A DNA stretch of 64,000 nt from a virus (IMGVR_UViG_3300042914_002848); one strand, 5' to 3'. Shown: positions 33,525-52,926, counted from the first letter of the stretch. Notes: generated from the letters alone by a model not told the origin. A program made the numbers and translations.

Positions 33525-34712
33525 TTAGGCATAATTATTCACAATTTTTATTAAATCATTTTCGTAATGTCTTACTGAACTAATATGGAATTTAAATATA
33601 TCCATTTCATAATAACCAACTGATATTTCATTCTCTGTTAAAATCTCCGATAATCTTTCAATAAATATAAAGTTATTTTGGTTTAACATCGTACCATCAA
33701 ACTCAACAACAATATCATTTTCACAAATAGGGTCGTGGTGGTTAATTAAACGAATTCTTCTACTTAAATCAAACTTTGTATTTTTTTGTTCTTCATCAAT
33801 GTAATTGGTGGTTATCATACCATATCCATCTTCTATGTATATTTTATCACACCAAGGTTCTAATGCCCTCAACAACTCTAAATTACAATTCTTTACTACT
33901 AACCCAACACCATATTTGTGGGGGATGATTGGATACTGATACTCATCGTTTTTTATCCAACTACCCCATTTACGCAGGTAGTTTCGGGCAGCAGATTGTT
34001 TCATATTATGAAAATCTACATCTTTGGTAACTTGCTCTATTCCATCCTGAAACTGACCTCCTCTACAAGTTAGATGATACACAAAAGCTGTCCATATTTG
34101 TGTAATATCATATCCATTTAAAATAAATCTATTAAAAATATCACTATCTTCGTGATAAGAGTGAAAAGTTTCATCGTGCATCCCAATTTTAGTAATATCT
34201 TCTTTATAACAAGCCCATGGAGCAAATATCCCTTTGGTTGTTATGTTTTGATTTTTCGTAATTAACTCCCTCACAAATTCATCAAATTCTTCTTTTTTAA
34301 AATCTTCAGGATAAAGTCCAAAGTTTTTAACTATTTTTTCTTTTCCTTCTGGGTGTAATGGTGGTTCAATTCTAGTTCCGGCTACAATACTACCCCGTTT
34401 CAAAAACTTTAAAATATTTTCATCAAACCCTCTAGCCACATACATATCAGCGTGAAACATACAAACTATTTCAGTAGTTGCCATTTCAATACACTTATTA
34501 TAAGCATGGGCAATTCCTTGTGGTTTATTTAAATCATTTTTAAGGTATTGAATTCCGTTTTCAATTAACCATGTTTCTGTCCCATCCTCATCCATATCAA
34601 CATAGACAATAATATGGTGTTCAATAGCACTATTTTCTTTAATAGATTTAATACTATTTTTTAAATATCTAAGATTGTTTTTGCTTGGGATACAAAAAGT
34701 TATTTTATTCAT
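33525..34712 (-). CDS. glycosyltransferase family 2 with C-terminal extension
   Basis: GT2 N-terminus ITFCIPSKNNLRYLKNSIKSI...VYVDMDEDGT. Start set at MNKITF to avoid overlapping the upstream gene. Confidence 0.6.
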   Translation of the reverse strand: MNKITFCIPSKNNLRYLKNSIKSIKENSAIEHHIIVYVDMDEDGTETWLIENGIQYLKNDLNKPQGIAHAYNKCIEMATTEIVCMFHADMYVARGFDENILKFLKRGSIVAGTRIEPPLHPEGKEKIVKNFGLYPEDFKKEEFDEFVRELITKNQNITTKGIFAPWACYKEDITKIGMHDETFHSYHEDSDIFNRFILNGYDITQIWTAFVYHLTCRGGQFQDGIEQVTKDVDFHNMKQSAARNYLRKWGSWIKNDEYQYPIIPHKYGVGLVVKNCNLELLRALEPWCDKIYIEDGYGMITTNYIDEEQKNTKFDLSRRIRLINHHDPICENDIVVEFDGTMLNQNNFIFIERLSEILTENEISVGYYEMDIFKFHISSVRHYENDLIKIVNNYA

Positions 34713-34713
34713 A

Positions 34714-35271
34714 TCAAACCCAATGTGTAAATTTAACTCCAATTTTTTCAATTTCTTTTATCAATTCAATTGTACTGTTTTTATCTTCCCCATTTTCTAA
34801 AATAGGATACATATCTTTGTGTGAATGAAACTCTACAAATAAATCATTTAGATATTGAATTGAATTATCTTCTATCATTTTTCTCAAAACAGCATATTCC
34901 GCACCTTCTATATCCATTTTAACAACTATAAAATCATCTTTAGAAAAATTTTGTATTATAAATTCGCTAAAATCCAAACACATTACATCAATAGAGCCAT
35001 AGTAATTTTTTCCTATATGGTTTTTATATATAGATGATGAATCGGTGTTTGGGTATGCAATATTAAACGTAATTATTTCATTATTAGTATATATTGCTTT
35101 ATTAATGTAATGAATATTATTGTGAATATTTTGTTCGTTGTGCTCTTGCCATAAATAAGTGTTAGGTTCAAATGAGTATATTTCCCAACTACTATCCATA
35201 TTATACATTTGTATGAATTTCATTAAACCCTCTGCCAAATGTGTCCCGCAATCTAAAAATATTTTTTTCAT
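34714..35271 (-). CDS. FkbM-family methyltransferase
   Basis: FLDCGTHLAEG and the overall FkbM layout. Confidence 0.55.
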   Translation of the reverse strand: MKKIFLDCGTHLAEGLMKFIQMYNMDSSWEIYSFEPNTYLWQEHNEQNIHNNIHYINKAIYTNNEIITFNIAYPNTDSSSIYKNHIGKNYYGSIDVMCLDFSEFIIQNFSKDDFIVVKMDIEGAEYAVLRKMIEDNSIQYLNDLFVEFHSHKDMYPILENGEDKNSTIELIKEIEKIGVKFTHWV

Positions 35272-35283
35272 ACTATCTAATTA

Positions 35284-36117
35284 TTATTTTGGTAAACACA
35301 ATAAGTTATGACCAGATTTCGGTGATATATCAGTATGTGTTTTAATTTTATTTCCTAAATTGTTAATATCAAATACACCATTACGTTCATCATAGCACTC
35401 ATAGTTTAAATCGGCTATAACATATAATAGTTCATCTATTTCTTTAAAATTTAAACCATCGTATAATTCTGTTATTAATACAGGTTTACATTCAGTTATA
35501 ATAGGTTTAAGGGTTGGAATTATATTTTTATCATGTCCTTCAGCATCTATTTTGATTAAACTAATATTATTTATTAAATTATTGTGGTGTTCTTTTAAAA
35601 AATCGGCTGTATTTACAGCAAAAACATCCAATGGAATAGTATGGCCGGTGACCCCGATACCAGCATTTAAAGATTCCGCGTATCCGCCATTACAAAAACC
35701 ATAGTCGGAATAATGAAAGGTTAAGTTTGTATTTTTTGTAGAACACGCTAAATTGTAAGGAATAATATTTTGATGTATGGTTGAATTTAATTCCAACACT
35801 TCATAAGCAACTGGATTTGGTTCGAATGAAATAACTTTATTTGCAAATAGTGAAAAAGCTATGGACATATTTCCTACTTGGGCACCAATATCTATTACAT
35901 TTGAATTTGGTCTAATTAACTTCTTTATATTATTTAATATGGTATTGGTAAATAATTCGCGTTGCTCCCAATTTCCTTGATATGGGTGATTCCATTTATA
36001 ATATTTAAAATTATATTCAATAATATTGTAATTAACAATACTGCTTGAATAGTGAAAGTTATTTTTTTTTAAAAATTGTATAACTTCTTCTCTGTATTCT
36101 TTAATTTCTTTTAACAT
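35284..36117 (-). CDS. SAM-dependent methyltransferase (FkbM-like)
   Basis: Motif I VIDIGAQVGNMSIAF. Confidence 0.55.
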   Translation of the reverse strand: MLKEIKEYREEVIQFLKKNNFHYSSSIVNYNIIEYNFKYYKWNHPYQGNWEQRELFTNTILNNIKKLIRPNSNVIDIGAQVGNMSIAFSLFANKVISFEPNPVAYEVLELNSTIHQNIIPYNLACSTKNTNLTFHYSDYGFCNGGYAESLNAGIGVTGHTIPLDVFAVNTADFLKEHHNNLINNISLIKIDAEGHDKNIIPTLKPIITECKPVLITELYDGLNFKEIDELLYVIADLNYECYDERNGVFDINNLGNKIKTHTDISPKSGHNLLCLPK

Positions 36118-36995
36118 AAAATTTTATTTTTAAATTTTTCTAATTCATTTAAAAGATTTGCTTCAGCGTGTCTTTTAAACTCCAATTGCTTATCAATTAA
36201 GTGTAAATATTTTTGATATGGATTATGGCGGTATTTAAAATTTTCTATAACTATTACTTCTTCTAGCACAAATTGTTGTATATTGTAATTACAGTTCTTC
36301 ATTATATCACAACACAACATAACATATGTATCATCCACACCATATGGTCCAAATGAATCAGGAATATCTGTTAATTTTAATAATTTAGTGGATAGCAAAT
36401 TAAACCAACCACCACCGAATTTAAAATAATTTATACTTTTTAAATTTACATCACCACTAAAAGAATAGTTGACAATTTTAAAAGGATCAACATTCCTATA
36501 TCTTTCTAAATTTGGTGATAAATTGATAAAATTTTTGTTTACTAAAGAATCCCAACTATTATCCCACATTTTCATTATTTCCGGTGATATAACGTAATAA
36601 TCAATATTAATTTTTTTAGAAGATTCTATCAAATAAAAAAAATGCTCGGGTTTAAATATAACATCACAATCTAAATAAAGAATATTATCAGAGGTGGTTG
36701 AACGTACAGCTTCTCTTCTTTTATCATCACACCCCATACATTTACTATCATCATCAATCACAAACTGAGTTTCCGCCCAATCCCACAATTTTTTTATTTG
36801 ATTAAATTTATCAATGAAAAATTGTTTAGGTATTTGTGATTTTTTCCAGTCAACTAAATTTAAATTTAAAGTGGTATCTATTATTATTTTATCTTCTGGA
36901 TTCAGATAATAACTACCAATTTTAAATTGTAATGATTGCCATTCAAACCAGTCTATTTCATGTGGTAGTAGATGAACTACTATATGCGTTTTCAT
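36111..36995 (-). CDS. hypothetical protein (glycan island)
   Basis: 294-aa ORF. Confidence 0.5.
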   Translation of the reverse strand: MKTHIVVHLLPHEIDWFEWQSLQFKIGSYYLNPEDKIIIDTTLNLNLVDWKKSQIPKQFFIDKFNQIKKLWDWAETQFVIDDDSKCMGCDDKRREAVRSTTSDNILYLDCDVIFKPEHFFYLIESSKKINIDYYVISPEIMKMWDNSWDSLVNKNFINLSPNLERYRNVDPFKIVNYSFSGDVNLKSINYFKFGGGWFNLLSTKLLKLTDIPDSFGPYGVDDTYVMLCCDIMKNCNYNIQQFVLEEVIVIENFKYRHNPYQKYLHLIDKQLEFKRHAEANLLNELEKFKNKILC

Positions 36996-37843
36996 TTTAG
37001 TAAATGTTTAAATTTATTTTTGTTTATTTTTATGTACTCAGGCAAGTTTACATTATCTATCCAATATTTAAATTCATTTCTACCTAGAATATCTGTATTA
37101 CTTTCTAAACTGTTAGAAATGTTGTTTTTAATATAATCATTATTATATTCTTGATGGCCAAAATTTTCTATTTTGGTTTTAATTCTATCAACACCACCTT
37201 GATAAGAAAAATGCCAACCAGCATTATCAATATAGGTGTATGTAGTTTTATTTGGAGTATCTAAGTGATTTACACTTGCATTTTTAACATTTTTAAATTT
37301 AGTATAATAAGTTCCGGCCCATTCTTCACTACTGCGCATGTTAAGATACATAGAAAAAACCAATTGTTTACACTTATATATTTGATTATCATCTATAACA
37401 TAACTAATATTTGGATTCCAAATTTCATCCAAATCCGATATATAGCACACGTCATCATCGGCAATTCCAGCATTAATTAAAGCATCTTTCATACATTCTT
37501 TTTGATAAAATTCACGCATCCAATGAAACTGCCCATATGGTACATTTGTAGTAGTTAAACAATTCAAATATTTTTGTTTATCAATAGTTGTTGATGCATT
37601 CAAAAATCTGAATTGAAGCTCCTCATACGATTTTGGGGTATCATCAACTATATGATGTATTATTTTGTGTGCATATTTTTTAAATAATTCTTTATTTTCA
37701 TCATAAAATAATTTTTTATTTAATCCAGAAAAAGAAATGTTTGATTCAACAATTACAAATTTATCTACAACATTTTCAAGTGTATTTAATCTAATTTCTA
37801 ATAATTCTAATTCATTAAAGAATATAAAGCAATCGTATATCAT
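36992..37843 (-). CDS. glycosyltransferase, GT17-like (tentative)
   Basis: N-terminus DCFIFFNELELLEIRL...VDKFVIVESNISFSG resembles bacterial Glyco_transf_17 homologs. Confidence 0.45.
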   Translation of the reverse strand: MIYDCFIFFNELELLEIRLNTLENVVDKFVIVESNISFSGLNKKLFYDENKELFKKYAHKIIHHIVDDTPKSYEELQFRFLNASTTIDKQKYLNCLTTTNVPYGQFHWMREFYQKECMKDALINAGIADDDVCYISDLDEIWNPNISYVIDDNQIYKCKQLVFSMYLNMRSSEEWAGTYYTKFKNVKNASVNHLDTPNKTTYTYIDNAGWHFSYQGGVDRIKTKIENFGHQEYNNDYIKNNISNSLESNTDILGRNEFKYWIDNVNLPEYIKINKNKFKHLLK

Positions 37844-38742
37844 TTTAAGTAAATTTTTGTTTGATTAATAAATAAATTTAATTCTCTTTTACATTCATCG
37901 TATGTTTGTAAATTTCCAAATCTATCCATATAAATAAAATCTTTATATAAATTACAACCCATAGACCAATACCCGTTAGATATATTATGTCTTGCCCAAT
38001 ATTTTGGAGCAATAATTAATTTTGCTAACTCATTTGTTAAAGCTGGGAAATATCCAAAGCTAGAGTTGGATAAAATTAACCACTTTGCGTTTTTTATTAT
38101 TGAATAATCCTCCCCAACACCCATGTGAAAAACATTATCGGATAACTCAGGTAATAAATTTTTTACACAATTTGGATTTTCGGTAATTACAGCAAAAGTC
38201 ATTTGGGGATTAATACTTAGCATATGATTAATAGCATTAACCCAATATGTTCTAGATAAAAATAATGTATCATCACCCTCATAGTCCCGTATATTTAAAA
38301 TACACACATCATCATTTGAAAAATCATATATATCATATTCGGGCTTAACACATAACCATTTTTTAATATCATTTTTATAATCATAAAAATAATCTTCCGA
38401 TTGTAATAATCCATCTATTTTGCAATTATCATGTAACGATAACACATTATAATCAGTCAACCGTATATCACACCCTATAGTTGCATCGTGCTGACTAGTA
38501 TTTAATTTGATTCTACATTCTTTTTCTTTGTAGTAATTAGTAATTGCGCTAATATCAACAGGCAATCCTAAATCCAAATCCATAAAATACACTCCTTTAT
38601 CGTTGTATCTTCTATCTCCAAAGTTTTCTAAACCAGTGAAACCAAATTCATACCCATTGCGTAGTGCAATAGCTCTTGTTGTAACATATACAGCAAGTTG
38701 GTTTCCAAAACCCTGTCCATAATAAAATTCGGTTGTTATCAT
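37840..38742 (-). CDS. glycosyltransferase family 11-like (alpha-1,2-fucosyltransferase-like)
   Basis: N-terminal GQGFGNQL resembles the GT11 GGLGNQMFQ motif. Confidence 0.5.
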   Translation of the reverse strand: MITTEFYYGQGFGNQLAVYVTTRAIALRNGYEFGFTGLENFGDRRYNDKGVYFMDLDLGLPVDISAITNYYKEKECRIKLNTSQHDATIGCDIRLTDYNVLSLHDNCKIDGLLQSEDYFYDYKNDIKKWLCVKPEYDIYDFSNDDVCILNIRDYEGDDTLFLSRTYWVNAINHMLSINPQMTFAVITENPNCVKNLLPELSDNVFHMGVGEDYSIIKNAKWLILSNSSFGYFPALTNELAKLIIAPKYWARHNISNGYWSMGCNLYKDFIYMDRFGNLQTYDECKRELNLFINQTKIYLK

Positions 38743-38760
38743 TAGATATAAATTTTATAG

Positions 38761-40113
38761 TTAATTGGATATTAAGTTATTATAATTATGATTTTTTCCA
38801 TGAAAGCCAAATGTTAATATACCATTATTTTCCGGTATTGGTGTTTCAAAAGAAAATTTTGATGCAACATCAATTGGTGCAAATTTACAACCATTTGCTT
38901 CATAAATGTGCTTGTTATGACAACAAAAAAATCCATCTTCGTTGTAAAACCCAAAGTAAGACTTCCACTCAAGATCCAATTCACTAGCTAATCTAAGTAG
39001 TTTTTTACTTCGCAGTGAAAAACCACCATTTCCAACTCGTTGTAAGTTACCATAACTATCTTTAAATGAAAAATCATCTTCAGGTATTGGCCACGGAGCT
39101 CCTATATAATCATATTCTAAAAACAAACCATCCCATTGTTCTGCATTAACAACAAACCCATCCTCTTGTATAATAAGGGCAAATTCAGTATTAATATATT
39201 TATGTAATTCATATACAATAAATTTACTGTATTCATCGGTATTTAGTATGGGGTTAATTTTAATAACATCTATATTATCTAACACACATTCTTCACTTGT
39301 TAATAATAAAACATTTTTAAATTCAATATTTTTTACAGAATATTGTAACGCTTTTATAGCACGTTGCACATTAACAGATGTAACACATACTAGTGTAACA
39401 TTTTCTAAATACTTTTTGTATTTTTTAGTAATGTAGTGCACTTCTTTTTCTATAATTTTATCATTAACTATTGTATTTGTTGTTCTGTTAGGATGTTCTC
39501 TATTTACAACAGTAACATAGTTACAAATACTTGGTAGTCCAAATTTATCATACAAACGTTTATAATAGTCAACATCAACCAACCATATTAGATTTTCATC
39601 AAACTCCAAAACATTTTTATTTTTAAACATTAAAACACTGGGTGAACTAATAGTATTTTCACCATAATGAATATTATCGTGATATTTAGGATATACTGTG
39701 TTGTAAAAATTTATTCCATCATTGGAATGACAGCAAGCTGTCACCATCCAATGGTTGTAATTTCCTACAAAATGATATATTTGATAGTATAAACTGTTTT
39801 CATCTACCAAAAAATCATCTTGACAAAGTATTTTTATAACATCACCCGAAGCCTTTGATATTACATTGTTTAAATTGGGCGCAAGTGTTCCGTATTTTTT
39901 TTGATAAAAAAAGTGTTTTATATTTAATTTATTAGACCATTCATAACACAAATTTTTTATTTCATCATTTTTACTATGATCTGAAATAATAATTTCAAAG
40001 TTAGTGTAAGTTTGTTTGGCTAATTTTTGAAAAGAAAAATCTAAATATTTTTTTCCGTTTCCACCCATTTCATATGTTGGTATGCATACACTAATTAAAG
40101 GTAAATTATTCAT
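38761..40113 (-). CDS. glycosyltransferase family 2 with additional C-terminal domain
   Basis: ISVCIPTYEMGGNGKKYLDFSFQKLAKQTYTNFEIIISDHS. Confidence 0.6.
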   Translation of the reverse strand: MNNLPLISVCIPTYEMGGNGKKYLDFSFQKLAKQTYTNFEIIISDHSKNDEIKNLCYEWSNKLNIKHFFYQKKYGTLAPNLNNVISKASGDVIKILCQDDFLVDENSLYYQIYHFVGNYNHWMVTACCHSNDGINFYNTVYPKYHDNIHYGENTISSPSVLMFKNKNVLEFDENLIWLVDVDYYKRLYDKFGLPSICNYVTVVNREHPNRTTNTIVNDKIIEKEVHYITKKYKKYLENVTLVCVTSVNVQRAIKALQYSVKNIEFKNVLLLTSEECVLDNIDVIKINPILNTDEYSKFIVYELHKYINTEFALIIQEDGFVVNAEQWDGLFLEYDYIGAPWPIPEDDFSFKDSYGNLQRVGNGGFSLRSKKLLRLASELDLEWKSYFGFYNEDGFFCCHNKHIYEANGCKFAPIDVASKFSFETPIPENNGILTFGFHGKNHNYNNLISN

Positions 40114-40114
40114 T

Positions 40115-40792
40115 TTAAAAAACTTTTTTTAATTTGCTTATATTCATTGTAATGTTATTTGGCGCATTAATTGGTGCGTTGATGGGTTTTGTATCAAATT
40201 CTTTTTTTGTAAGACTATGCCAAGTTTTTATTTCAGTACCTACATTATAAATACCAAAACAATTTTTATAAATTAACTTTATAATTAACTCTGATATTTT
40301 ATTTACATAATCACCATTTGTAAATTGATTATCCCATGCGTTTTTATATGGAAATGGGTATGGTTTATGAGATGTTCTAACTATTAAATAGTTTTTACAT
40401 TTTAATTGTATGTGGGCATCACCAAGTAATTTTGTGTAACCATACCAGGTTTCTAAATGAACAGGAACATCTTCCTCTGATGCTTCTGTTTTAGAATTTG
40501 CATAAATATAATCAGTAGATATATGAGCAAGTTTTTTTCCTGTCTCGTTACAAAAATTTACTAATGTATCAACAAACTCATAATTTACTTTCCAATGCAA
40601 TTCTTTATTATTTGAATATGTGTCTGTATTTGCTATGCAATTAATGATAACGTCATATTCAGAAAGTTTAAACATCCATTGGTTAAAGTCAAAAATATCT
40701 ATTCCATCTTTTTTTCTTGAAATATAATCCCAATTAGTTTGTTTAACCAATTCAGAACCTAATAAACCATCACCAAGAATTACTATTTTCAT
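40115..40792 (-). CDS. NAD(P)-dependent sugar-nucleotide 4-reductase (RmlD/Rmd-like)
   Basis: Rossmann N-terminus MKIVILGDGLLGSELV and the YxxxK region. Confidence 0.5.
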   Translation of the reverse strand: MKIVILGDGLLGSELVKQTNWDYISRKKDGIDIFDFNQWMFKLSEYDVIINCIANTDTYSNNKELHWKVNYEFVDTLVNFCNETGKKLAHISTDYIYANSKTEASEEDVPVHLETWYGYTKLLGDAHIQLKCKNYLIVRTSHKPYPFPYKNAWDNQFTNGDYVNKISELIIKLIYKNCFGIYNVGTEIKTWHSLTKKEFDTKPINAPINAPNNITMNISKLKKVF

Positions 40793-42075: not shown

Positions 42076-42131
42076 ATTTTAATTTTTGTATTTTATTTTT
42101 TAAATTTATATAAAAACTATTTTATATAGAG

Positions 42132-44780: not shown

Positions 44781-44789
44781 TGTTATTTT

Positions 44790-45458
44790 TTATCTTAAAT
44801 TCCAAGAAGCTTGTGGGTCGGAAATATTTGAAAATATAGTTCCATTAAAATTATTAATTACAGTTTGATGCAATCCCAAAGCGTCTTGAGAATTGTTATA
44901 ACTATGGTATTCTATACCTATATATTTAAAATCATTTAAGCTATGTAATATAGTTGGTAAAATATCATACTCACCGCCTTCACAATCTATTTTAAAATAT
45001 GTACAACCATTGATTAAATATTTATCAATTGTTTCAGTTTTACAATGTGAAACTTTACCTCCAATCTGATATATGGATGAACCTCCACTATTTGTTTCCG
45101 GTGTAGATATGTATATATCACCATCTTCCACATTTGTAATAGCCGTTTGATGTAATTCAAAATCGTTTTCTGAAAATCCATTAAGTATTATATTTTTTTT
45201 AAAGTTTTCAAAATTTTCCAATACGGGTTCAAAAGCTATAACTTTACATCCAAACCTTTTTTTAATATAGATTGAAAACATACCAACATTTGCACCAATA
45301 TCAATAACGGTATCATTTTCATTCAAAGATATTGCTTCTAAACCATAAAAGTTATTCAAAAATTCATTCCAAACATAAGGTACAGTATCTGACCTTTTTT
45401 TGTCTTGAAATGTAAATAACTGATCATCTTTTGTAAATGTAAAAATTTCTGTGTTCAT
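44790..45458 (-). CDS. FkbM-family methyltransferase
   Basis: VIDIGANVGMFSIYI. Confidence 0.55.
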   Translation of the reverse strand: MNTEIFTFTKDDQLFTFQDKKRSDTVPYVWNEFLNNFYGLEAISLNENDTVIDIGANVGMFSIYIKKRFGCKVIAFEPVLENFENFKKNIILNGFSENDFELHQTAITNVEDGDIYISTPETNSGGSSIYQIGGKVSHCKTETIDKYLINGCTYFKIDCEGGEYDILPTILHSLNDFKYIGIEYHSYNNSQDALGLHQTVINNFNGTIFSNISDPQASWNLR

Positions 45459-45523
45459 TTTGTTTTAAATTTTATTTTATCAAGCAATGTACTAAACCAC
45501 TTGAATTCATATATAATATTTTT

Positions 45524-46297
45524 TCATTTTAATTGATATAAAAAATTAAATGCGCTAATATCTTCTATTTCATTAAAGTTATTTTCATTAAAAGTACTAA
45601 TTGGTTTTTTTCCGTGACACGCATTACCCCTTTCAACTTTAGAAACAAATTCAGAATATGTTCTTATATAGTAATGGTTAAGTTGAGCGATGTTGTCATT
45701 AGCCAAGTAATTATGTGAGGCGGTGCCTCTGTTAAAATTCGGGTCCACCCACATTTCAGTATCCCAATGATTATTGTGTTTCATTTCAGGTCTTAATTTA
45801 CAAATACTTTTAAATTGGTGGTGTAAATCTTTTTTTCTTTTTGTGAACCTTTTAACTGAACTAGTTTCAGAATAATCAAAATCTTTTATATTGTTATCTC
45901 CAAACATCGCCCAATTTATTACTAAACAATTAAAATCTTTATAATCGTCTATAAATAATTTTATGTCTTTTGTTTTTTTCAATACTAAAAATTCGTCTAC
46001 ATCAAAAAAAGCAGCCCATTCATATTCTGTGTGATATTTTTTTGCAAAATCTACATAACATTTTGTTTGTATATTTTTAACCCATTCAGGCTCATTTGAT
46101 TCCACATAGTTTGAGAACGATTTACCATCATAAATGTGAAAATGCACCCTTTCGTTTGGTATTGGATTTTTAAATCTCCAATCGTTTTGGAAAATATGAA
46201 TATCATCAAATCCAAGAAGTAAATGGTAATCAATCCATTCTTGTAAATAGTAATCTTCTTCTTTAGCTATACAAACTAACGATATCTTTTTTTTCAT
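45524..46297 (-). CDS. glycosyltransferase (GT92/GT2-like)
   Basis: ISLVCIAKEEDYYLQEWIDYHLLLGFDDIHIF. Confidence 0.45.
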   Translation of the reverse strand: MKKKISLVCIAKEEDYYLQEWIDYHLLLGFDDIHIFQNDWRFKNPIPNERVHFHIYDGKSFSNYVESNEPEWVKNIQTKCYVDFAKKYHTEYEWAAFFDVDEFLVLKKTKDIKLFIDDYKDFNCLVINWAMFGDNNIKDFDYSETSSVKRFTKRKKDLHHQFKSICKLRPEMKHNNHWDTEMWVDPNFNRGTASHNYLANDNIAQLNHYYIRTYSEFVSKVERGNACHGKKPISTFNENNFNEIEDISAFNFLYQLK

Positions 46298-46303
46298 ATA
46301 ATA

Positions 46304-47089
46304 TTAGTTATAATTAGGTGTGTATAGTGAATTAATTTTAAAATCATTATTATACAATGCGTACATAGCTCTTTCTAATAAATATGCTTCTCCAGGCTGT
46401 TTACTCCAAGAACAATACATTTTCATAGTATTATAAAAATTTAAATTATATCGTAAAATATCCTGTTTATTAAAAATGTAATTACAACCAGGAGCAAATC
46501 GTGTGTAATCATAAAGTATTGGATTTTCAAATATTGAAAACATTAAATCTTGATAGGTTGATACATATTTGTATCCAAATTGACCGTTAACCTGACCATT
46601 AACGATGGATATATGTTCGTAGTATTCATCGGTATCTTCTGTTACAAATCCAGAGCAACCATTGGTGAATTGAGGTGCTTCTCGTATATAATTTTCAATT
46701 GGTGTAAATGTTTGATTATTTATAATTTTAATAAATTTTAAAAAACCACAATGTCTAGGAACTACATTTCCTTTACAAAAAATAATTACTTCTGGCAAAT
46801 TATAATAATTATTTGTAATATAATCAAATATATCATATACATTTGCACCAACATTTTTTTGGTGTATTATTTTATCAGATGGTTCAAATCTATGAGCCTT
46901 ATCATAAATTAAGTAATTATCTGTAAAATCAAAAAACCAAGATTCTTCCAATGCTTCTGGTAACATATTATAATCTGTTATAACTAGCAATGCATCATTA
47001 GTAATAATTTTTGGAAATTTATATACTGGGTGTTTTTTTTGAATTATCATAATGTAATTTTTAAGATTAAATTTTAAATTACTAACCAA
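46304..47089 (-). CDS. hypothetical protein (glycan island)
   Basis: 261-aa ORF. Confidence 0.45.
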   Translation of the reverse strand: MVSNLKFNLKNYIMIIQKKHPVYKFPKIITNDALLVITDYNMLPEALEESWFFDFTDNYLIYDKAHRFEPSDKIIHQKNVGANVYDIFDYITNNYYNLPEVIIFCKGNVVPRHCGFLKFIKIINNQTFTPIENYIREAPQFTNGCSGFVTEDTDEYYEHISIVNGQVNGQFGYKYVSTYQDLMFSIFENPILYDYTRFAPGCNYIFNKQDILRYNLNFYNTMKMYCSWSKQPGEAYLLERAMYALYNNDFKINSLYTPNYN

Positions 47090-47811
47090 TTTTGTGGATA
47101 TAGATAGGATAGATTTCTATCTTCAGAAAACCATTTAGTGGGGGCAATCACTTTTTTATTTATATTTTTATTTAAAAATGCGCCCCACCAACTAAAAGTA
47201 CTATTACATATCACATTATGATGGCACAATGACATTAAACACATATCTTCAAATTGATTTCCTTGAATAAAAACAACTCCATCAGGAAATACTTGCTTAC
47301 ACCAATCAATATCATCGGAAAATATCAAAAAAGTATAGTCGTTATCATTAAAGTAATTTAAAGCTTCTTGAATATATTCGGGTGTAATCACCCAATAGTC
47401 GGAATGATTAATATAGTCTTGTCTACGAACGTGAATAGATACTGGATTTTTATACAAATTAATTATTTGATTACATTTAGTAAGTATGTGGGGTTTAAAT
47501 TTGAATTCTTTTATTATTTCTTCTTCATGTCCGCTGATGTATTCATAGGTTTGAAAATACCCATCTATAACAACATTATCCCCCTCTATGTTTCCTATTG
47601 TACAATTTAAATCAAATCCCTCTAATAAATCCAATTTATAGGGAATCCAAATATTATTGGTAAAGTCAAAACAACCATTTTTTTTTATATTTGTATTATC
47701 CGGCAATATAATAGGTTGTTTCATAGCAATTGAAATGACTTTTAAGGCAGCATACTGAAACATTTGGTTTCCCAATCTTCCACTATAACCAATACTTTTA
47801 TGTGTTATCAT
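47074..47811 (-). CDS. glycosyltransferase family 11 (alpha-1,2-fucosyltransferase)
   Basis: GT11 motif GYSGRLGNQMFQYAALKVIS. Confidence 0.65.
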   Translation of the reverse strand: MITHKSIGYSGRLGNQMFQYAALKVISIAMKQPIILPDNTNIKKNGCFDFTNNIWIPYKLDLLEGFDLNCTIGNIEGDNVVIDGYFQTYEYISGHEEEIIKEFKFKPHILTKCNQIINLYKNPVSIHVRRQDYINHSDYWVITPEYIQEALNYFNDNDYTFLIFSDDIDWCKQVFPDGVVFIQGNQFEDMCLMSLCHHNVICNSTFSWWGAFLNKNINKKVIAPTKWFSEDRNLSYLYPQNWLVI

Positions 47812-48016
47812 AACATTCTAAAAAATATGTTTGATCTATTTCAACTGAAAGAATTTTATTAAAGCCCAAGTCTAGGGCTTTTAGTATGCCATCTCCATGA
47901 TGAGTGCATGTTTCAAAAAATATATTATGATTAAATTTATATTTTTTGGATAATTCAAAAAAAGTTAATCCTTTAATTCCTTCAACTGTGACTTGAGAAT
48001 GTGTTTTATATATCAT
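47798..48016 (-). CDS. hypothetical protein
   Basis: 72-aa ORF. Confidence 0.35.
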   Translation of the reverse strand: MIYKTHSQVTVEGIKGLTFFELSKKYKFNHNIFFETCTHHGDGILKALDLGFNKILSVEIDQTYFLECYDNT

Positions 48017-49047
48017 ATAATTTGCTTATTAATCCAATAATATGTGTCTAAAATTCCATCATAAAGTGATTTAGTTGGCTCCCACTTCATTTTTTCTTTA
48101 TATAATGTATTATCTGAATTTCTGCCTCTAACACCAACCGGACATTTGAATCCATATTTTTCTTTAAATTCACTACCACCTATATTTTTGATAGTAATGT
48201 TTTTACCTGAAGCATCAATAGCAAATTGTGCAAGTTGATTAATAGTAACCATTTCTTCTGAACCAATATTAACCGGGCCTAAAAACCCATCTTGCCTCAT
48301 AAACCTCAATACTGCTTCTACACATTCATCAATATAAAGAAATGAACGAGTTTGTTGTCCATCACCCCAAACCTCTATCTCACCACCATCAGGAGTTTCT
48401 GCTGCTTTTCTACACATAGCGGCTGGTGCTTTTTCTTTACCACCTTTCCAAGTTCCCATAGGACCAAATATGTTATGAAATCTAGCTACTCTAACATCTA
48501 AACCATAATTGCGATTAAATGCTAAAAATAAGCGCTCACTAAATAATTTTTCCCACCCATATTCAGAATCGGGATTTGCAGGATAAGCGGAGGATTCTTC
48601 GCAATTTGGGTTATTTGGGTCTAATTGATTATGTTCAGGATACATACAAGCTGATGAACTATAAAAGATTCGTTTTATGGAATGTCTAATTGCTTCAGGA
48701 GTCACATTTAAATTAATTAAGGCTGAGTTGTGCATTACATTTGCATCGTTCTCACCTGTAAAAATATACCCCGCCCCACCCATATCGGCTGCTAATTGAT
48801 ATACTTCATCAAATGACAGTTCTTTATCGGCTAATGAGCGTTGATTTGGAGAAAACATTACTCTACTTACTAACTTTGGGTCTCGTAAATCTCCGCAGAT
48901 ATATTCATCACAAATATCTTCATTGTTCCAATATTCGTGTTTGGGTTTAATGTCTACTATACGAACCCAAAATCCTTCATTTTTAAGTCGCTTTGCCAAA
49001 TGGCCTCCAATAAAGCCTCCCCCACCTAATACTAATGCTGTTTTCAT
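48013..49047 (-). CDS. NAD-dependent epimerase/dehydratase (GDP-mannose 3,5-epimerase-like)
   Basis: LVLGGGGFIGGHL Rossmann motif and a SEYGWEKL YxxxK block. Confidence 0.6.
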   Translation of the reverse strand: MKTALVLGGGGFIGGHLAKRLKNEGFWVRIVDIKPKHEYWNNEDICDEYICGDLRDPKLVSRVMFSPNQRSLADKELSFDEVYQLAADMGGAGYIFTGENDANVMHNSALINLNVTPEAIRHSIKRIFYSSSACMYPEHNQLDPNNPNCEESSAYPANPDSEYGWEKLFSERLFLAFNRNYGLDVRVARFHNIFGPMGTWKGGKEKAPAAMCRKAAETPDGGEIEVWGDGQQTRSFLYIDECVEAVLRFMRQDGFLGPVNIGSEEMVTINQLAQFAIDASGKNITIKNIGGSEFKEKYGFKCPVGVRGRNSDNTLYKEKMKWEPTKSLYDGILDTYYWINKQII

Positions 49048-49667
49048 AATGTTTCGTAATAGTTGTTTTGTTTTTCTTGCCTTTCAATTGTTTTGGGATG
49101 ATACAACGACCACTCTTCTTCCATAGGAAGGTAAGCGAATTGTTTATGTCCATCAAGTCTCTCATGTACTTTATTTATCCATTTTATTTCAGGAGTGTTT
49201 CTATAAATACGAGTTTGAAAATCAGGCCAATTCACCCATCCATTTTCATTTACATTCCACCCCCACTTTTGAATGTGTTGAGGTGTTAAACCTTCCACCG
49301 TGTTTACTCTTGGAACAGCGTATAAATCAACTGAAGAATTGTTTTCTAAAACCAAAGGTAATTGAGATATCAGATTTTCGTGTGGTAATTCATCCGCATC
49401 AATCTGAAAGATGTAATCACCACTACAAAGAGAATTTAGATAATTTTTATGGTCTGCAAAATGATTATCAAAATCCCTACTATACCACTTATACCAGTCC
49501 AATAAGGAGTAGGCTTTGAGTATATCCAAAACTTTAGATGTTCCATTTTTAGAATCAAAAAGAACAACAATCTCATCTTCTTCCCTCTTTTTTTCTAAAA
49601 GGAATCCAAGCAATCTTTGGATTTCTACTTCTTCATTTTTGACTGTTAATCCGTAACTTAGTTTCAT
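49044..49667 (-). CDS. glycosyltransferase family 2
   Basis: YGLTVKNEEVEIQRLLGFLLEKKREEDEIVVLFDS. Confidence 0.5.
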   Translation of the reverse strand: MKLSYGLTVKNEEVEIQRLLGFLLEKKREEDEIVVLFDSKNGTSKVLDILKAYSLLDWYKWYSRDFDNHFADHKNYLNSLCSGDYIFQIDADELPHENLISQLPLVLENNSSVDLYAVPRVNTVEGLTPQHIQKWGWNVNENGWVNWPDFQTRIYRNTPEIKWINKVHERLDGHKQFAYLPMEEEWSLYHPKTIERQEKQNNYYETL

Positions 49668-50151
49668 TTATTTCTTGTTCGTTTGTTTTTTGCTGTGCTT
49701 CTCTTACATTCTTTGGTTCTACCATATCAACAGGTTTATATTTGTAATTGTAAACTATTGCTGATTTGATGTTTTTCCATATAAAAGTTCTATATCCTTC
49801 TTGCAACAATTTGTTTCTAATTTTTGCGGTATATATCCCCTTTGATGCTTCATTGAACTCTAACTTTGCTAATTCTAATTTTTTAACTCTTGCTGATTCA
49901 GATATTACTTCACGAAATTCTTTTGATAATCTTTCAAATATTTGAGGTCTTAAATAATTCAAGTCTAAGCAATGAAAGTAGTTTTTGTATCTTGGTTCTA
50001 AAACAAGTACCCAATAATAATTCAATTCACCATTTACCTTTTCATACTGAAGCTTTGCTACCATTCCCCTTTCCAAATACATTTTGTTTAGAGGTTGAGC
50101 ATCACTCAATCTGAGTAAATGTTGATTTATGAATTTCTTATCCGTTGGCAT
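49633..50151 (-). CDS. hypothetical protein
   Basis: 172-aa ORF. Confidence 0.45.
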   Translation of the reverse strand: MPTDKKFINQHLLRLSDAQPLNKMYLERGMVAKLQYEKVNGELNYYWVLVLEPRYKNYFHCLDLNYLRPQIFERLSKEFREVISESARVKKLELAKLEFNEASKGIYTAKIRNKLLQEGYRTFIWKNIKSAIVYNYKYKPVDMVEPKNVREAQQKTNEQEINETKLRINSQK

Positions 50152-51508
50152 CTACTTTTTTCAATTCAGGTAGTTTTATTTTTGGTAGTTCGTTTGTTTC
50201 ACCAACCTTATTAAGTTTTGGTAATTCAATCTTTTTAAGTGTTGGTAGTTTTAAACCAACCATTTGAGGAGCGGAGTCTGCCCCATACTTTTCCAAGTAT
50301 TCAGATAACTTTTCGGTCATTTTATCAAAGGTAAAGTTATCTTTTGCATACTTACGATTCTTTCTGGATAGTTCTAAATACTTATTGTAATTTTCGTAGA
50401 TATCCTTCATATACCCAGCTGCTTCGCTTATATTGATTTTAAACCACTTAGAACCTTTAATCAACCAATCATTCACAGCTGATTGATGTATTTCTTCTAA
50501 TTCCCCACTAACTAACACATTAAACCCATTATCCAAAAAGTCCATATGACCACTCCACTTAGGAGCAATGATTGGTTTACCACTTATCATTGCTTCTAAT
50601 AGTGGTCTACCGAATCCTTCACCCTTTGTAAAAGATAGATGCGCTTTAACCTTTGTATGGTTGTATAGGGAGTTCATTTCAATATCTGATAAATCACCAC
50701 TCAATAAATAAATATTAGGTAGTTTTGATTCCCCACTTTCTTTTCGGACCTGCTCTTTCAACGATTCAATTCTTTTCCTTATCTCATGAGTATCCACATA
50801 AGAAGGCGCCATCAAACTTGTTTTTAGAACAAGAGCAGGTGCGGTTTTTTTACCTTTGAATGATTGTAAAAAGGTATATATCATCGCACATACATTCTTA
50901 CGGTCTTGCCCACATTCGCCAGGCAACCAATGTCCTACGAATAGGAAGCAAAACTCTTCTGAAACATCACTCAATACATCTTTTACAGATTGTTCAACAG
51001 GCAGTTTATTATCGTATATCTGCTCATCAAACCCTTCAAAGAGAACTTCAACAGGCTTCGTTAATCCTAACTCACCAACCTTTTGTTGAGTTTTTTCATC
51101 CTGCATATCATACTTTATCTCCAACCCAGATTTGGCGTGGTTGGATGATACCAAAGTTAGATTCATTCTATTACACCCCTCAATAAATTGAGGTGAAGCC
51201 TGATTTGTTTCAATCCCCGCAGTTATACCAATGTTATAGTTACCCATAGGTTGGAACTCATTTGGTATTGTAATTTGTATCCAAACATCAGGCTTTTGAT
51301 TAATCTGCCCCAAAACCAATCTACTCACCAAATCATCATCAATTGGTGATATCAAAGCGTTTTGAGGTGTAGCACCCCATCTCTGAGGTAAAATCTTAAC
51401 ATCCCAATCCGGCCTTGCTTTTATCAAACTACGGACAAAGTCACGACTACGCGCACCGTATCCACTACGGGTTGCTATTGGGCAACTAACTATACATAAC
51501 TTCTTCAT
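50138..51508 (-). CDS. glycosyltransferase family 4 (GT-B, GT1 fold)
   Basis: EGFGRPLLEAMISGKPIIAP. Confidence 0.65.
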   Translation of the reverse strand: MKKLCIVSCPIATRSGYGARSRDFVRSLIKARPDWDVKILPQRWGATPQNALISPIDDDLVSRLVLGQINQKPDVWIQITIPNEFQPMGNYNIGITAGIETNQASPQFIEGCNRMNLTLVSSNHAKSGLEIKYDMQDEKTQQKVGELGLTKPVEVLFEGFDEQIYDNKLPVEQSVKDVLSDVSEEFCFLFVGHWLPGECGQDRKNVCAMIYTFLQSFKGKKTAPALVLKTSLMAPSYVDTHEIRKRIESLKEQVRKESGESKLPNIYLLSGDLSDIEMNSLYNHTKVKAHLSFTKGEGFGRPLLEAMISGKPIIAPKWSGHMDFLDNGFNVLVSGELEEIHQSAVNDWLIKGSKWFKINISEAAGYMKDIYENYNKYLELSRKNRKYAKDNFTFDKMTEKLSEYLEKYGADSAPQMVGLKLPTLKKIELPKLNKVGETNELPKIKLPELKKVDANG

Positions 51509-52926
51509 ACTTTTACTATTTCAAACTTTTTACGAGGTTTCCAATTTTCAAATACCACCTCCATTGATTCAATAAAGGTTTCACCCATTTTTTCAGCTGT
51601 CATATTACCAACACCATTTACAAATGCGTGCGCTAACATCCCCGCTTTTGCTCTTTCATCTGCTGGGGTATCATACCATTCCTTAATTGCGTTTCCAAAA
51701 TCTCTGAAATCACATCTATCATCAAATATATAAGGTGTCAATGGTGAACCTTGCAATGAACGATTTGATGGCCATACAGGCTTTACCCACTCACCCCAAG
51801 TCAATCTACTCAAATAATCAGAACGAACATCGTGCAACGAACCCAATTCCAAATAATCATCTTCGGTTAAGAACTTACCATCCATTTTAAACCCACATTG
51901 GTCTTGCAATCCACCAGTAACATTTACCACAATTGGTAAACCAGCTCTCATCCCTTCACAAGTACTCAACCCAAAACCTTCATTGGATGTAAGGTTTACA
52001 ATTATATCACCTGAGTTGTAGTACAGGTTTAATTCTTCAGTTGATATGCCAGGATTTGTAAATACATATTTACCACCACTGGAGCAATTCTTAATAACTT
52101 CAGGTATATCCGTTCCATTTTCATCTACAGGCTGTGTGTGTAAAAACAAACAAACCTTATCACGCTTCTCCTTTGGTAATTGCTGAACAAAACTATCAAA
52201 AGCAATAATCAAATCACCTGGTTGTTTTCTACGAATATTTCTATTGTTCCACAACACCACAAATTCCATATCATCAATTCCATACTTTTTCTTAAACTCC
52301 ACCAATTTTTCATTATCTTTTGGTAGTGGTTTAAAATGTTCGGATACACCATGCGGTACATACTTAAATGTCCAATCAGGTAAATCCATACCATACTTTT
52401 TCAAACACCTTTTGTTGATACCATAAGTTTGTTTTGATATCGCCATCAGCAAATCACAACTTGCGTAATAAGGTGAATTCCAAACTGGGTCAGGTAAATC
52501 ATCCCAAATATTATAATAAAATATTGGAATCATCTGCCTAAGTTCATGCTCCATTTGATACAACCATATCCAATATCTTGGGTCGGTAAAGTGTAGAATA
52601 GCATCAGGCTTTTCCACATTTATCAATTGACGAACAATATCAGGATTTCCATATCCATTAGTGCAGTATATTTTTAGATATGCATCCTCAACACCAGTTT
52701 CTTTTGCAGCATCCTGCGATACATCTAAAACCTTTCCGTTTTCTGGGTGATTTAATGCAGCACCTAATTGAACCCAATCGTATTTGTGTAGGGTTTTTAG
52801 GACAAACTCTTTTGATTGAGTTGCTATTCCACTAAATAATCTTAAATCATCTGAAAGAAGGAGTATCTTCTTTTTCTTTGGTTTGTTAGGGTCTATTTTC
52901 CTAAGCTTTGGTAATTTTAATTCCAT
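51505..52926 (-). CDS. glycosyltransferase family 4 (GT-B)
   Basis: NEGFGLSTCEGMRAGLPIVV. Confidence 0.65.
   Translation of the reverse strand: MELKLPKLRKIDPNKPKKKKILLLSDDLRLFSGIATQSKEFVLKTLHKYDWVQLGAALNHPENGKVLDVSQDAAKETGVEDAYLKIYCTNGYGNPDIVRQLINVEKPDAILHFTDPRYWIWLYQMEHELRQMIPIFYYNIWDDLPDPVWNSPYYASCDLLMAISKQTYGINKRCLKKYGMDLPDWTFKYVPHGVSEHFKPLPKDNEKLVEFKKKYGIDDMEFVVLWNNRNIRRKQPGDLIIAFDSFVQQLPKEKRDKVCLFLHTQPVDENGTDIPEVIKNCSSGGKYVFTNPGISTEELNLYYNSGDIIVNLTSNEGFGLSTCEGMRAGLPIVVNVTGGLQDQCGFKMDGKFLTEDDYLELGSLHDVRSDYLSRLTWGEWVKPVWPSNRSLQGSPLTPYIFDDRCDFRDFGNAIKEWYDTPADERAKAGMLAHAFVNGVGNMTAEKMGETFIESMEVVFENWKPRKKFEIVKV

Follow-up and report, generated by a model that had tools for sequence, protein, structure and literature searches.

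Large glycan or "LPS-like" (lipopolysaccharide-like) islands are already annotated in aquatic T4-like phages, and in all of them the function is unproven. The cyanomyophages S-B05, S-SSM7, P-SSM2 and S-SCSM2R, as well as the hypervariable island of the pelagimyophages, hold large contiguous sets of genes for glycosyltransferases (GTs), short-chain dehydrogenases/reductases (SDRs) and methyltransferases; S-SCSM2R has 22 such genes, including 13 for GTs (PMC12801897), and the GT-rich islands of pelagimyophages are hypervariable between relatives (PMC7029224). Here we describe an island of this kind in a 64,000-nucleotide stretch of viral DNA, IMGVR_UViG_3300042914_002848 (the window, over which this genome was covered), in which 22 densely packed genes on the minus strand at 33525-52926 form one contiguous glycan-biosynthesis island. 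It is built in two layers, a lineage-wide, phage-specific frame and a low-GC cassette of ~14.7 kb that is exchanged as a block.

The cluster of S-B05 (~17 kb, ~22 genes) includes a GDP-mannose 3,5-epimerase (GME) homologue and an E1 dehydrase that are 59% and 58.6% identical to those found here, together with a GT11 gene. The present phage, which on its T4-type polymerase, clamp and clamp loader we assign to the T4 superfamily, belongs to a different lineage, with Flavobacterium phage immuto, Microcystis phage Mel-JY01 and Rhodothermus phage RM378 as relatives. By definition, the islands of pelagimyophages and cyanomyophages are part of a tail-fibre "host recognition cluster" (PMC7029224), whereas this one lies between the replication and lysis modules and has no tail-fibre gene in it or beside it. 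It further differs from them in its phage-specific four-gene head, which makes up a frame with a terminal GT2, and in the late-type motif at its start. In the Far-T4 paper, glycosyl, sugar and polysaccharide are not mentioned.

The loci of immuto and Mel-JY01 resemble the island in their position after a PD-(D/E)XK nuclease gene and in their head, which consists of GT4-A, GT4-B, a small protein and a GT2. Amino-acid identities to immuto are 45% for GT4-A, 50% for GT4-B, 56% for the short GT2 and 46.6% for the terminal GT2 (gp169, the last gene in the immuto locus); in Mel-JY01, GT4-A is ~38-64% identical, in two pieces, and the short GT2 40%. Both loci are shorter (~10.8 kb and 13 genes in immuto, ~6.3 kb and 8 genes in Mel-JY01), and P172 and its counterpart in the immuto head are not homologous. 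Their cassettes are unrelated to this one, that of immuto encoding aminotransferases, a pilin-glycosylation-like acetyltransferase and a mannosyltransferase, and the fall in GC content seen in the present cassette is not matched (none in immuto, ~0.02 in Mel-JY01).

Giant viruses are comparable in other respects. Chloroviruses, with their capsid N-glycans, and Megavirinae, with their fibrils, likewise have their own sugar-nucleotide pathways, soluble GTs, methyltransferases and rare bacterial-type sugars, and the Megavirinae fibril glycans go with clade-specific clusters of 6-33 genes (PMC10117803). Their hosts are eukaryotic and their virion glycans were determined experimentally, whereas the present glycan is predicted from genes; moreover, their clusters vary by clade, and the variation described here is among near-identical strains. 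No orthology to giant viruses was detectable beyond the glycosyltransferase B736L, the best solved relative of GT4-A (3oy2, E 1e-13), which we take to be a protein of chlorovirus NY-2A.

Mycobacteriophages are known for the glycosylation of their capsids and tail tubes (Freeman et al. 2023, as cited in PMC12619734 and PMC12801897). In these systems, cytoplasmic phage GTs modify structural proteins without lipid carriers or export, as we propose below, and 2-4 GT genes lie beside the structural genes with no sugar-nucleotide pathway; the present island, in contrast, comprises 22 genes, brings its own deoxy-sugar chemistry and lies far from structural genes. Finally, bacterial O-antigen, capsule and 3,6-dideoxyhexose (rfb) loci have in common with the island a low-GC cassette, a 4,6-dehydratase, an E1/RfbH 3-dehydrase, a ketoreductase, transferases of the GT2, GT4, GT11 and GT9 types and FkbM methyltransferases. 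Unlike such loci, the island has no initiating phosphoglycosyl transferase, Wzx/Wzy/Wzz proteins, ABC exporter, E3 reductase or nucleotidyltransferase, and it is carried by a lytic-type phage with a phage late-type promoter at its head.

The island and the phage that carries it

The original prediction had described a contiguous glycan-biosynthesis island of ~19.5 kb and 22 genes, and this was borne out by the count of open reading frames (ORFs), by public gene calls and by profile matches. The island comprises 21 minus-strand ORFs of at least 100 aa and one of 72 aa (47798-48016). The same 22 genes are present in independent public gene calls on identical contigs, which move two starts, one to ATG 34712 (395 aa) in place of TTG 34751 and the other to ATG 47050 (248 aa). 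Adjacent genes overlap or are at most ~65 nt apart. Families were assigned by profile searches against Pfam, NCBIfam and PHROGs, and solved relatives were taken from the PDB. These searches, which the original prediction had asked for, confirmed GT, SDR and FkbM families for most ORFs: ten GTs, three FkbM methyltransferases and four sugar-nucleotide enzymes are supported by profile or fold, and the remaining five of the 22 ORFs are (by their lower coordinate, as used throughout) 36111, 42132, 46304, 47798 and 49633. In Pfam, NCBIfam, PHROGs and the PDB, no significant match was found for 42132, 36111, 46304 or the C-terminal domain of the terminal GT2. Most of the predicted transferase set was recovered, with four GT2 (one also GT92), two GT4, one GT11, one GT17 and one GT9 fold, while the match of the second GT11 (37840) is weak. 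In the order of transcription, the genes and the flanking motifs, all on the minus strand, are as follows.

52945-52956, minus: late-type promoter motif TATTTATAATAA at the head of the island, 18 nt ahead of the start codon of GT4-A
51505-52926, minus: GT4-A, conserved-core GT-B glycosyltransferase, 473 aa (Pfam Glycos_transf_1, E 7.5e-8; phrog_2170)
50138-51508, minus: GT4-B, conserved-core GT-B glycosyltransferase, 456 aa (Pfam Glycos_transf_1, E 8e-9; phrog_2170, E 1e-21)
49633-50151, minus: P172, semi-conserved small protein
49044-49667, minus: short GT2, 207 aa, last gene of the conserved head (Pfam Glycos_transf_2, E 3.5e-9)
48013-49047, minus: GME homologue, first gene of the replaceable part (plant GME 2c59, 299 bits, E 3e-88)
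47798-48016, minus: 72-aa ORF, called in the public assembly
47074-47811, minus: GT11-family glycosyltransferase, 245 aa (Pfam Glyco_transf_11, E 5e-26, 92 bits, cut-off 23.9)
46304-47050, minus: protein with weak DUF3431 resemblance (PF11913, E 0.004, under the cut-off)
45524-46297, minus: GT2_4/GT92-like glycosyltransferase (PF13704, E 1.8e-9, and PF01697, E 8.5e-7, both over the Pfam cut-offs)
44790-45458, minus: FkbM methyltransferase, putatively for sugar O-methylation (PF05050, E 6.5e-12; weak RfbT match)
44025-44780, minus: compact GT-B enzyme with GT9 (heptosyltransferase) fold, assigned by fold
43021-44001, minus: GDP-sugar 4,6-dehydratase (PF16363, E 2e-62)
42132-43019, minus: 295-aa protein (no match in Pfam, NCBIfam, PHROGs or the PDB)
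40789-42075, minus: E1/RfbH-type pyridoxamine phosphate (PMP)-dependent sugar 3-dehydrase with Cys cluster (NCBIfam RfbH, 356 bits)
40115-40792, minus: short RmlD-like reductase, candidate 4-ketoreductase (PF04321, E 2.7e-23, N-terminal half of the profile only)
38761-40113, minus: two-domain GT2 + DUF5672 protein (PF00535, E 1.4e-12; PF18922, E 1.8e-23)
37840-38742, minus: probable GT11-like glycosyltransferase (phrog_2644 glycosyltransferase, E 1.7e-10; no Pfam match)
36992-37843, minus: GT17-family glycosyltransferase (PF04724, E 9.6e-26, 91 bits, cut-off 26)
36111-36995, minus: possible degenerate GT-A (PF00535, E 0.033 only)
35284-36117, minus: FkbM methyltransferase (PF05050, E 2.6e-12)
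34714-35271, minus: FkbM methyltransferase (PF05050, E 2e-13)
33525-34712, minus: terminal GT2, 395 aa, closes the island (PF00535, E 2e-13)
33300-33311, minus: second late-type motif TATTTATATAAG, just past the island; begins the next transcription unit

The long ORFs of the window are all on one strand. The upstream (right) flank encodes the PD-(D/E)XK nuclease, a clamp loader, a sliding clamp and a T4-type family-B polymerase (PolB; phrog_262, E 8e-193), and the left part of the window encodes GroEL, ThyX, a GH19 endolysin and a holin. PolB is 50% identical to that of Mel-JY01 and ~31-34% identical to those of T4-like phages of other hosts, including cyanophages. Gene content on both sides thus agrees with the predicted placement of the island between a cluster of exported proteins and the replisome genes. 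A megablast search of the island against 50,697 phage records gave one short match of 72%, so that no phage sequenced to date is closely related. A host among the Bacteroidota is probable, as judged from the C-terminal sorting domain of the type IX secretion system (T9SS) in a neighbouring gene and from TTTGGAAA-N17-GTATATTTA promoters, which resemble what we take to be the -33/-7 consensus of Bacteroidota.

Because the GC content falls from 0.34 to 0.27 across 34-48 kb, we considered whether a host polysaccharide locus had been mis-joined to phage DNA. We regard the chance of such an artefact as negligible. Contigs that stem from several independent samples and assemblers run across each junction of the island at 100% identity, a glycan locus occupies the same position in the complete genomes of the cultured phages immuto and Mel-JY01 and in 80 IMG/VR contigs, and all 22 genes have the strand and packing of the phage genes. 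The claim that the island is integral to a phage genome therefore stands.

A fixed frame around an exchangeable cassette

The frame consists of the head (GT4-A, GT4-B, the small protein and the short GT2) at the promoter end and the terminal GT2 at the far end. The proteins in common with immuto and Mel-JY01 are those of the first four genes and, in immuto, that of the terminal GT2. The order PD-(D/E)XK nuclease, GT4-A, GT4-B was kept in 80 of 80 IMG/VR loci, in which GT4-B is 45-99% identical, and the short GT2 came next in 73; the other 7 end too soon past GT4-B. Aquatic metagenomes contain more than 8000 clusters of GT4-A homologues. A scan of GTDB with one genome per species (185,579 prokaryotic species) gave 15 GT4-A hits, all on contigs of metagenome-assembled genomes and with inconsistent taxonomy. 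Phage synteny was seen in all 12 hits with enough flank, and 3 were too short to judge. The frame is phage-specific, and in GTDB GT4-A was found on phage-like contigs only.

The part between the two ends has a GC content of 0.273, compared with 0.339 in the backbone. Contigs with an identical GT4-A protein have ~95-99% identical backbone DNA over the replication genes, yet carry different middle genes. DNA homology between strains (92-100%) ends at ~49040, the stop codon of the short GT2, and returns at 33985 or 34376, within the terminal GT2. In this protein the GT-A domain at the N-terminus is variable and the C-terminal part conserved; judging from these sequences, the C-terminal part belongs to the frame and the catalytic N-terminal part to the cassette. 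Twelve loci with GT4-B at least 88% identical at the amino-acid level fell into 8 types after the short GT2, with practically nothing in common at 90% DNA identity. Modules are also reshuffled between cassettes: that of the related locus L003 contains the block of dehydrase, reductase, GT2-DUF5672 and 37840 at 74-86% DNA identity, and the GME homologue is missing from the L003 and L005 cassette types.

To describe the cassettes of the lineage, we surveyed each related locus over at most 10 kb past the core. The 550 ORFs from 56 loci formed 229 clusters, and the cassette genes of the present strain mostly recur in 0-4 loci. Cassettes across the lineage encode methyltransferases, epimerases, dehydratases, DegT enzymes, cytidylyltransferases, NeuB, GT29 sialyltransferase-family proteins, PIG-L deacetylases and acetyltransferases. 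Nonulosonic-acid pathways (NeuC-like, NeuB, CMP-sugar synthetase) are encoded at L022:17336-21398 and in other IMG/VR cassettes. Four of the cassette protein clusters are members of GT29, a sialyltransferase family found mostly in eukaryotes and viruses, and PIG-L deacetylases occur together with 2OG-Fe oxygenases in the lineage. The core-plus-cassette design, and the presence of at least 8 cassette types on one backbone, suggest strong diversifying selection on the product. Neither this architecture nor the population-level hypervariability had been noticed in the original prediction.

Mobile elements have entered the same region in sister strains. In L005-7, a NUMOD3 homing-endonuclease ORF splits the short GT2 (window ~49230-49260), an insertion that this strain does not have. 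Among L003, L005, L006 and L007, there are strains with a 47-aa plus 261-aa ORF pair between GT4-A and GT4-B (~51490-51505), with a clamp-loader gene that has a weak intein-splicing match and is split around an extra 289-aa ORF (55583-56500), and with PolB split by a NUMOD3 endonuclease gene (58101-60599); the present strain is without these insertions.

Predicted donor sugars

The deoxy-sugar and methylation chemistry foreseen in the original prediction is encoded, in that a 4,6-dehydratase, a 3-dehydrase and three FkbM methyltransferases were found. Enzyme 40789 had been taken as a DegT-family pyridoxal phosphate enzyme with a Cys cluster. The DegT family and the Cys cluster are present, but the best matches are RfbH and E1 3-dehydrases: among solved structures, E1 (3bcx/3bb8) scored 257 bits and ColD 168 bits, and the alignment retains the PAHHI stretch and the WGRDCYC...C..C cysteines. 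In E1, the catalytic His replaces the Schiff-base Lys, and the cysteines are [2Fe-2S] ligands. On these features we classify 40789 as an E1-type Fe-S 3-dehydrase and not as an aminotransferase. Its identity is 98.8% in the L003 cassette and 58.6% in Synechococcus phages, and the RmlD-like 40115 accompanies it in L003 with 95.6% identity. The best solved relative of 43021 is GDP-D-glycero-D-manno-heptose 4,6-dehydratase (7us5, 199 bits), followed by Rmd (143) and Gmd (~110).

The glycan had also been described as fucose-containing. We do not retain this, since the SDR 48013 is a GME homologue (~59% identical in T4-like cyanophages): it scored 299 bits against GME structures, including that of plants, and 88 bits against the NCBIfam GDP-fucose synthase model, whose cut-off is 500. 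Profile scans of the island and of all window ORFs of at least 100 aa detected no nucleotidyltransferase, E3 reductase or GDP-fucose synthase. The lack of the last leaves fucose unsupported, and host enzymes would have to supply the functions of the first two. Of the parts of a 3,6-dideoxy sugar pathway, the 4,6-dehydratase and the PMP 3-dehydrase are thus present, and the E3 reductase and the nucleotidyltransferase were not found. The combination of GDP-sugar 4,6-dehydratase, 3-dehydrase and GME leads us to predict 3,6-dideoxy sugar and L-galactose. Starting from host GDP-sugars, these enzymes would supply the predicted donors, a GDP-3,6-dideoxy hexose or heptose and either GDP-L-galactose or GDP-L-gulose. 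These sugar identities, as well as the subsequent O-methylation, we infer from the enzyme families.

Promoter motifs and the likely timing of expression

By comparing upstream regions with those of immuto, we found a late-type motif. In the window, TATTTATAWWAD has three matches only. Each is intergenic and lies on the coding strand, one ahead of GT4-A, one ahead of the gene that follows the island and one ahead of the endolysin gene. In immuto (131 kb), it has 12 coding-strand and 3 opposite-strand copies. Every coding-strand copy is intergenic, with 0-64 nt between it and the next start codon, and the genes that follow these copies include those for the tail sheath, tape measure, terminase large subunit, tail spike and tail-fibre-like proteins and the first gene after the glycan locus. 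The last of these, at 59991, is directly past the final glycosyltransferase gene, which matches the arrangement of TATTTATATAAG here. Across related loci, TATTTATAWWAD is found at most 80 nt upstream of GT4-A as an exact copy in 47 of 91 and with at most one mismatch in 58 of 91. Since the island is headed by a motif that precedes structural genes in immuto, it is probably a late operon, and this co-occurrence suggests that it is probably expressed as one late transcription unit. The canonical T4 late motif TATAAATA was not enriched in our search, and a scan inside the island for sigma-70 promoter and terminator consensus sequences gave results at or below chance.

A second class of motif lies elsewhere. 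TTTGG(A/T)A-N17-TAT(A/C)TTTA has six intergenic copies on the minus strand, 3-31 nt upstream of gene starts (window 7180-21651), and looks like an early, host-type promoter class. No copy of this early-type motif is present in the island, all six being at 7-22 kb. In immuto, the early-type motif GTTGC-N-TATATTTAG precedes 18 genes, mostly small, in one block. The copies in the window are:

7184-7215, 7619-7650, 11804-11835, 17536-17567, 20490-20521 and 21620-21651, minus: TTTGG(A/T)A-N17-TAT(A/C)TTTA

Predicted site of assembly

Transmembrane segments were predicted by a simple hydropathy scan. In the 21 island proteins of at least 100 aa, no transmembrane-like segment was seen (maximum 19-residue hydropathy 1.35), and none of the 550 downstream ORFs in the 56 related loci had three or more membrane segments, so that any priming phosphoglycosyl transferase, flippase, polymerase or ABC permease among them should have been noticed. 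On the basis of island hydropathy and of Pfam searches of window ORFs of at least 100 aa, there is no Wzx/Wzy flippase or polymerase, no priming phosphoglycosyl transferase of the WecA/WbaP type and no ABC exporter; the only polytopic ORF in the window is a holin-like protein of 147 aa. A seroconversion module of the Gtr type (GtrA, GtrB, GtrC) is likewise not represented by membrane proteins, its only trace being a weak PHROG GtrB-like match of the 207-aa short GT2 (E 0.0024). The predicted lack of Wzx, Wzy and Wzz thus holds in the island and extends to the 56 related loci sampled, within ~10 kb past the core. Of the features that mark O-antigen and capsule loci, the low-GC cassette between conserved flanks is present, and the initiating transferase and the flippase, polymerase or exporter were not found. 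Because all the enzymes appear soluble, we propose cytoplasmic assembly. The original prediction had preferred cytoplasmic glycosylation to O-antigen conversion; this preference gains some strength from the late-type promoter, the phage-specific core and the soluble enzymes.

The same observations bear on a remodelling of the host envelope, in which soluble phage enzymes would extend a lipid-linked host primer, such as an undecaprenyl-phosphate-linked O-antigen, a capsule or the general O-glycan of Bacteroidota, and a host flippase, ligase or oligosaccharyltransferase would export the product, for example to block superinfection or to lessen the adsorption of progeny to debris. This is the published interpretation of the pelagimyophage and cyanomyophage islands (PMC7029224; PMC12801897). 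GT2, GT4, GT11, GT9-fold, FkbM and RfbH-type dehydrase genes are typical of O-antigen and capsule loci, a low-GC replaceable cassette with conserved flanks looks like a bacterial serotype locus, genes for exported, T9SS-sorted and PA14 proteins lie nearby, and the lysine-rich LKLPxLKK tail of GT4-B could anchor this enzyme at a membrane surface. However, the priming, flipping, polymerizing, ligating and exporting steps are not encoded, so that the host would have to prime and export ever-changing foreign glycans. In addition, the core is conserved in phages isolated on hosts of different phyla and was never found in genuine bacterial chromosomes, whole sugar modules recur in cyanophages, immuto does not have the exported proteins beside its locus, and a late-type promoter would leave little time for turnover of the surface before lysis. 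Taken together, we consider envelope remodelling unlikely, though a serious contender.

Candidate acceptors

We favour cytoplasmic, strain-variable glycosylation of a virion protein, to which we give about an even chance of being correct and with which all our observations can be reconciled. In the mechanism that we propose, the cassette would draw on host GDP-sugars, because it encodes no nucleotidyltransferase. The GDP-mannose 3,5-epimerase would yield GDP-L-galactose or GDP-L-gulose, and the GDP-hexose/heptose 4,6-dehydratase, the E1-type Fe-S/PMP 3-dehydrase and the short RmlD-like reductase would together yield a GDP-3,6-dideoxy sugar. The conserved GTs would prime the glycan, after which six further transferases (GT11, GT11-like, GT17, GT2/GT92, GT2-DUF5672 and GT9-fold) and the three FkbM enzymes would build and O-methylate an oligosaccharide. 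Assembly would take place late in infection, in the cytoplasm and directly on a conserved phage-encoded acceptor, most likely a virion protein, so that the cassette would set a strain-specific "glycan serotype" of the particle. Both the identity of the acceptor and the late timing are our inferences. The GME and E1 modules are ~59% identical in phages of cyanobacteria, which argues for a target that is independent of the host, and the hypervariability suggests that the product is exposed to external selection. The nearest functional precedents for such a mechanism are the clade-specific clusters of giant viruses and the glycosylated capsids and tails of mycobacteriophages.

Several observations weigh against this proposal. 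The 64-kb window contains no virion gene, and the island adjoins replication and lysis genes, whereas in mycobacteriophages the genes are within the structural module. The same enzyme families serve O-antigens and capsules, low GC with conserved flanks is a hallmark of bacterial surface-polysaccharide loci too, and comparable islands of pelagimyophages and cyanomyophages were published as host-surface modification (PMC7029224; PMC12801897). The E1-type dehydrase would need a reductase partner (E3), which is not encoded here. The label "late" comes from the co-occurrence of a motif with structural genes in a relative, whose own glycan locus has a one-mismatch copy only, and in the group with 60-85% GT4-A identity a -33-like TTTGG/TTAGG box often precedes GT4-A as well, which suggests that timing may differ between lineages.

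A target other than the virion would also agree with the cytoplasmic location of all the enzymes. It might be a host protein, modified in takeover or counter-defence, or a phage protein outside the virion structure, or else a small molecule, soluble or lipid, that serves as acceptor. GT4-A has a weak match to the Pfam family "GT4 in conflict systems", which is also precomputed for most of its homologues, and the window has counter-defence content, such as a Tad3 homologue. On the other hand, ~13 transferase and methylase steps together with strain-level hypervariability are ill-suited to inactivating one intracellular target, the hypervariability points to selection from outside, and the late-type promoter speaks against a role in takeover. 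We therefore judge a non-virion target improbable.

DNA was the other target allowed for in the original prediction. On this reading, sugars would be placed on hydroxymethylated bases, as in T4 or in the 5-hydroxymethylcytosine (5hmC) glycan clusters of Pyle et al. The island is directly downstream of replication genes, two DNA-methylase-like genes lie near PolB, and there is a precedent for phage GTs, akin to LPS enzymes, that attach mono- to trisaccharides to 5hmC (bioRxiv 10.1101/2023.12.21.572611). Known DNA glycans are, however, mono- to trisaccharides and depend on 5hmC (bioRxiv 10.1101/2023.12.21.572611); ~10 transferases with methylated dideoxy sugars go far beyond any of them. Among ORFs of at least 100 aa in the window, Pfam searches found no Tet/JBP dioxygenase, C5-methyltransferase or ThyA-type hydroxymethylase, and ThyX only. 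The promoter is of the late type. Furthermore, in immuto, which has a homologous core and a 13-gene locus, liquid chromatography with ultraviolet and mass-spectrometric detection (LC-UV-MS) showed dA, dC, dT and fdPreQ1 in place of dG, and no glycosylated nucleoside was reported (PMC10516641). With this result from a relative, the DNA option of the original prediction is unsupported, and we consider DNA hypermodification very improbable.

Other features of the island and its surroundings

GT4-B is a weak paralogue of GT4-A. Its C-terminal tail consists of LKLPxLKK(I/V) repeats and is kept in L019, L022 and immuto. The peptide (L/I)xLPxLKK(I/V) occurs in three copies in this tail (50138-50260) and once at the N-terminus of GT4-A (52890-52926), with no further copy in the six-frame translation of the window, and could be a docking or membrane-surface motif. 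We considered P172 as an SH3-like binder of these tails and dropped the idea, as immuto has the tails and an unrelated protein in the slot. The 72-aa ORF at 47798-48016 has no family match and no homologue in related loci; an earlier reading of it as a methyltransferase fragment or recombination scar was withdrawn for want of Pfam support and of homologues elsewhere. Protein 37840 and the GT11 protein 47074 are 25% identical over 173 aa (pairwise E 8e-6), which lends weak support to their relationship, and 42132 has a short HxRxxD-like resemblance to GT11 motif I and nothing more. In L003, a DUF3431 protein occupies the same slot after the GT11 gene, with no detectable sequence similarity to 46304.

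Directly after the island, the region 26693-33242 encodes transmembrane proteins of 83 and 114 aa, two signal-peptide proteins, a 571-aa PA14-domain protein and a 633-aa protein that combines a cohesin domain with a T9SS C-terminal sorting domain. It is unusual for a lytic-type phage to encode a T9SS cargo protein. A functional link between these neighbours and the island was not adopted, the adjacency not being kept in immuto or Mel-JY01. The exported cluster is followed by the GH19 endolysin gene (25639-26238) and that of the holin-like 147-aa protein.

Further to the left, the 23 ORFs at 141-17997, which were scanned together, include the Tad3 homologue, a type I Thoeris inhibitor (E 2e-35), as well as ThyX, NUDIX, glutamine-synthetase-like, Band_7, non-specific endonuclease and zeta-toxin/AAA_33 kinase-like proteins, and GroEL at 14964-16571. 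Two tRNA-like elements at 19535-19617 and 19852-19973 (minus) have a common 6-bp acceptor-like stem (GUCAGG/CCUGAC) and a canonical T-arm (GGUUCGAAUCC). Their middle regions are aberrant or expanded, and neither ARAGORN nor Rfam called them. The acceptor, a D-like arm and the T arm are retained in the predicted folds, which are no more stable than those of shuffled sequence.

One ORF in the batch 18003-30708 plus 54370-63981 has a Druantia DruA-domain match; in public calls, the gene between PolB and the clamp gene has a 192-aa DruA-domain product, a location that fits 57518-58111. A second DruA-domain gene (405 aa) is present in sister strains and not in this one (loci L003-L008 and L019-L022). 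Upstream of PolB, the adjacent paralogous ORFs 60638-62209 and 62408-63628 (523 and 406 aa) have PHROG DNA-methyltransferase matches, and one ORF in the PolB-side batch matches Pfam N6_N4_Mtase; these are possible DNA-modification genes, unrelated to the island.

Meaning for the phage lineage

Marine T4-like "LPS-like" islands have been annotated for about two decades without a demonstrated function. The framed replaceable cassette, the presence of at least 8 cassette types on a single backbone and the late-type promoter were not found in the literature that we searched. The cultured Flavobacterium phage immuto, which grows on Flavobacterium sp. LMO8 and has the same conserved head, makes the virion, host-surface and DNA alternatives experimentally separable. 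As a further point of value, the cassettes are a source of glycosyltransferases that are compact and soluble and of enzymes for deoxy-sugars.

In the broadest form of our proposal, which we put forward tentatively and hold to be somewhat less probable than its opposite, a globally abundant lineage of aquatic tailed phages coats its virions with rare-sugar glycans by means of a conserved priming module and a freely exchangeable cassette. If this is true, near-identical phages would represent many "glycan serotypes", as a phage counterpart of the fibril glycosylation of giant viruses, and a previously unrecognised axis of phage diversity and selection would be exposed, on which grazers, lectin-like host defences and adsorption may act. 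Should the product prove to be on the virion, the phages of lakes and oceans would bear variable glycans that contain rare sugars (in this strain, 3,6-dideoxy sugars and L-galactose; in its relatives, nonulosonic acids), with a bearing on adsorption, grazing, particle aggregation and the very definition of a phage "strain".

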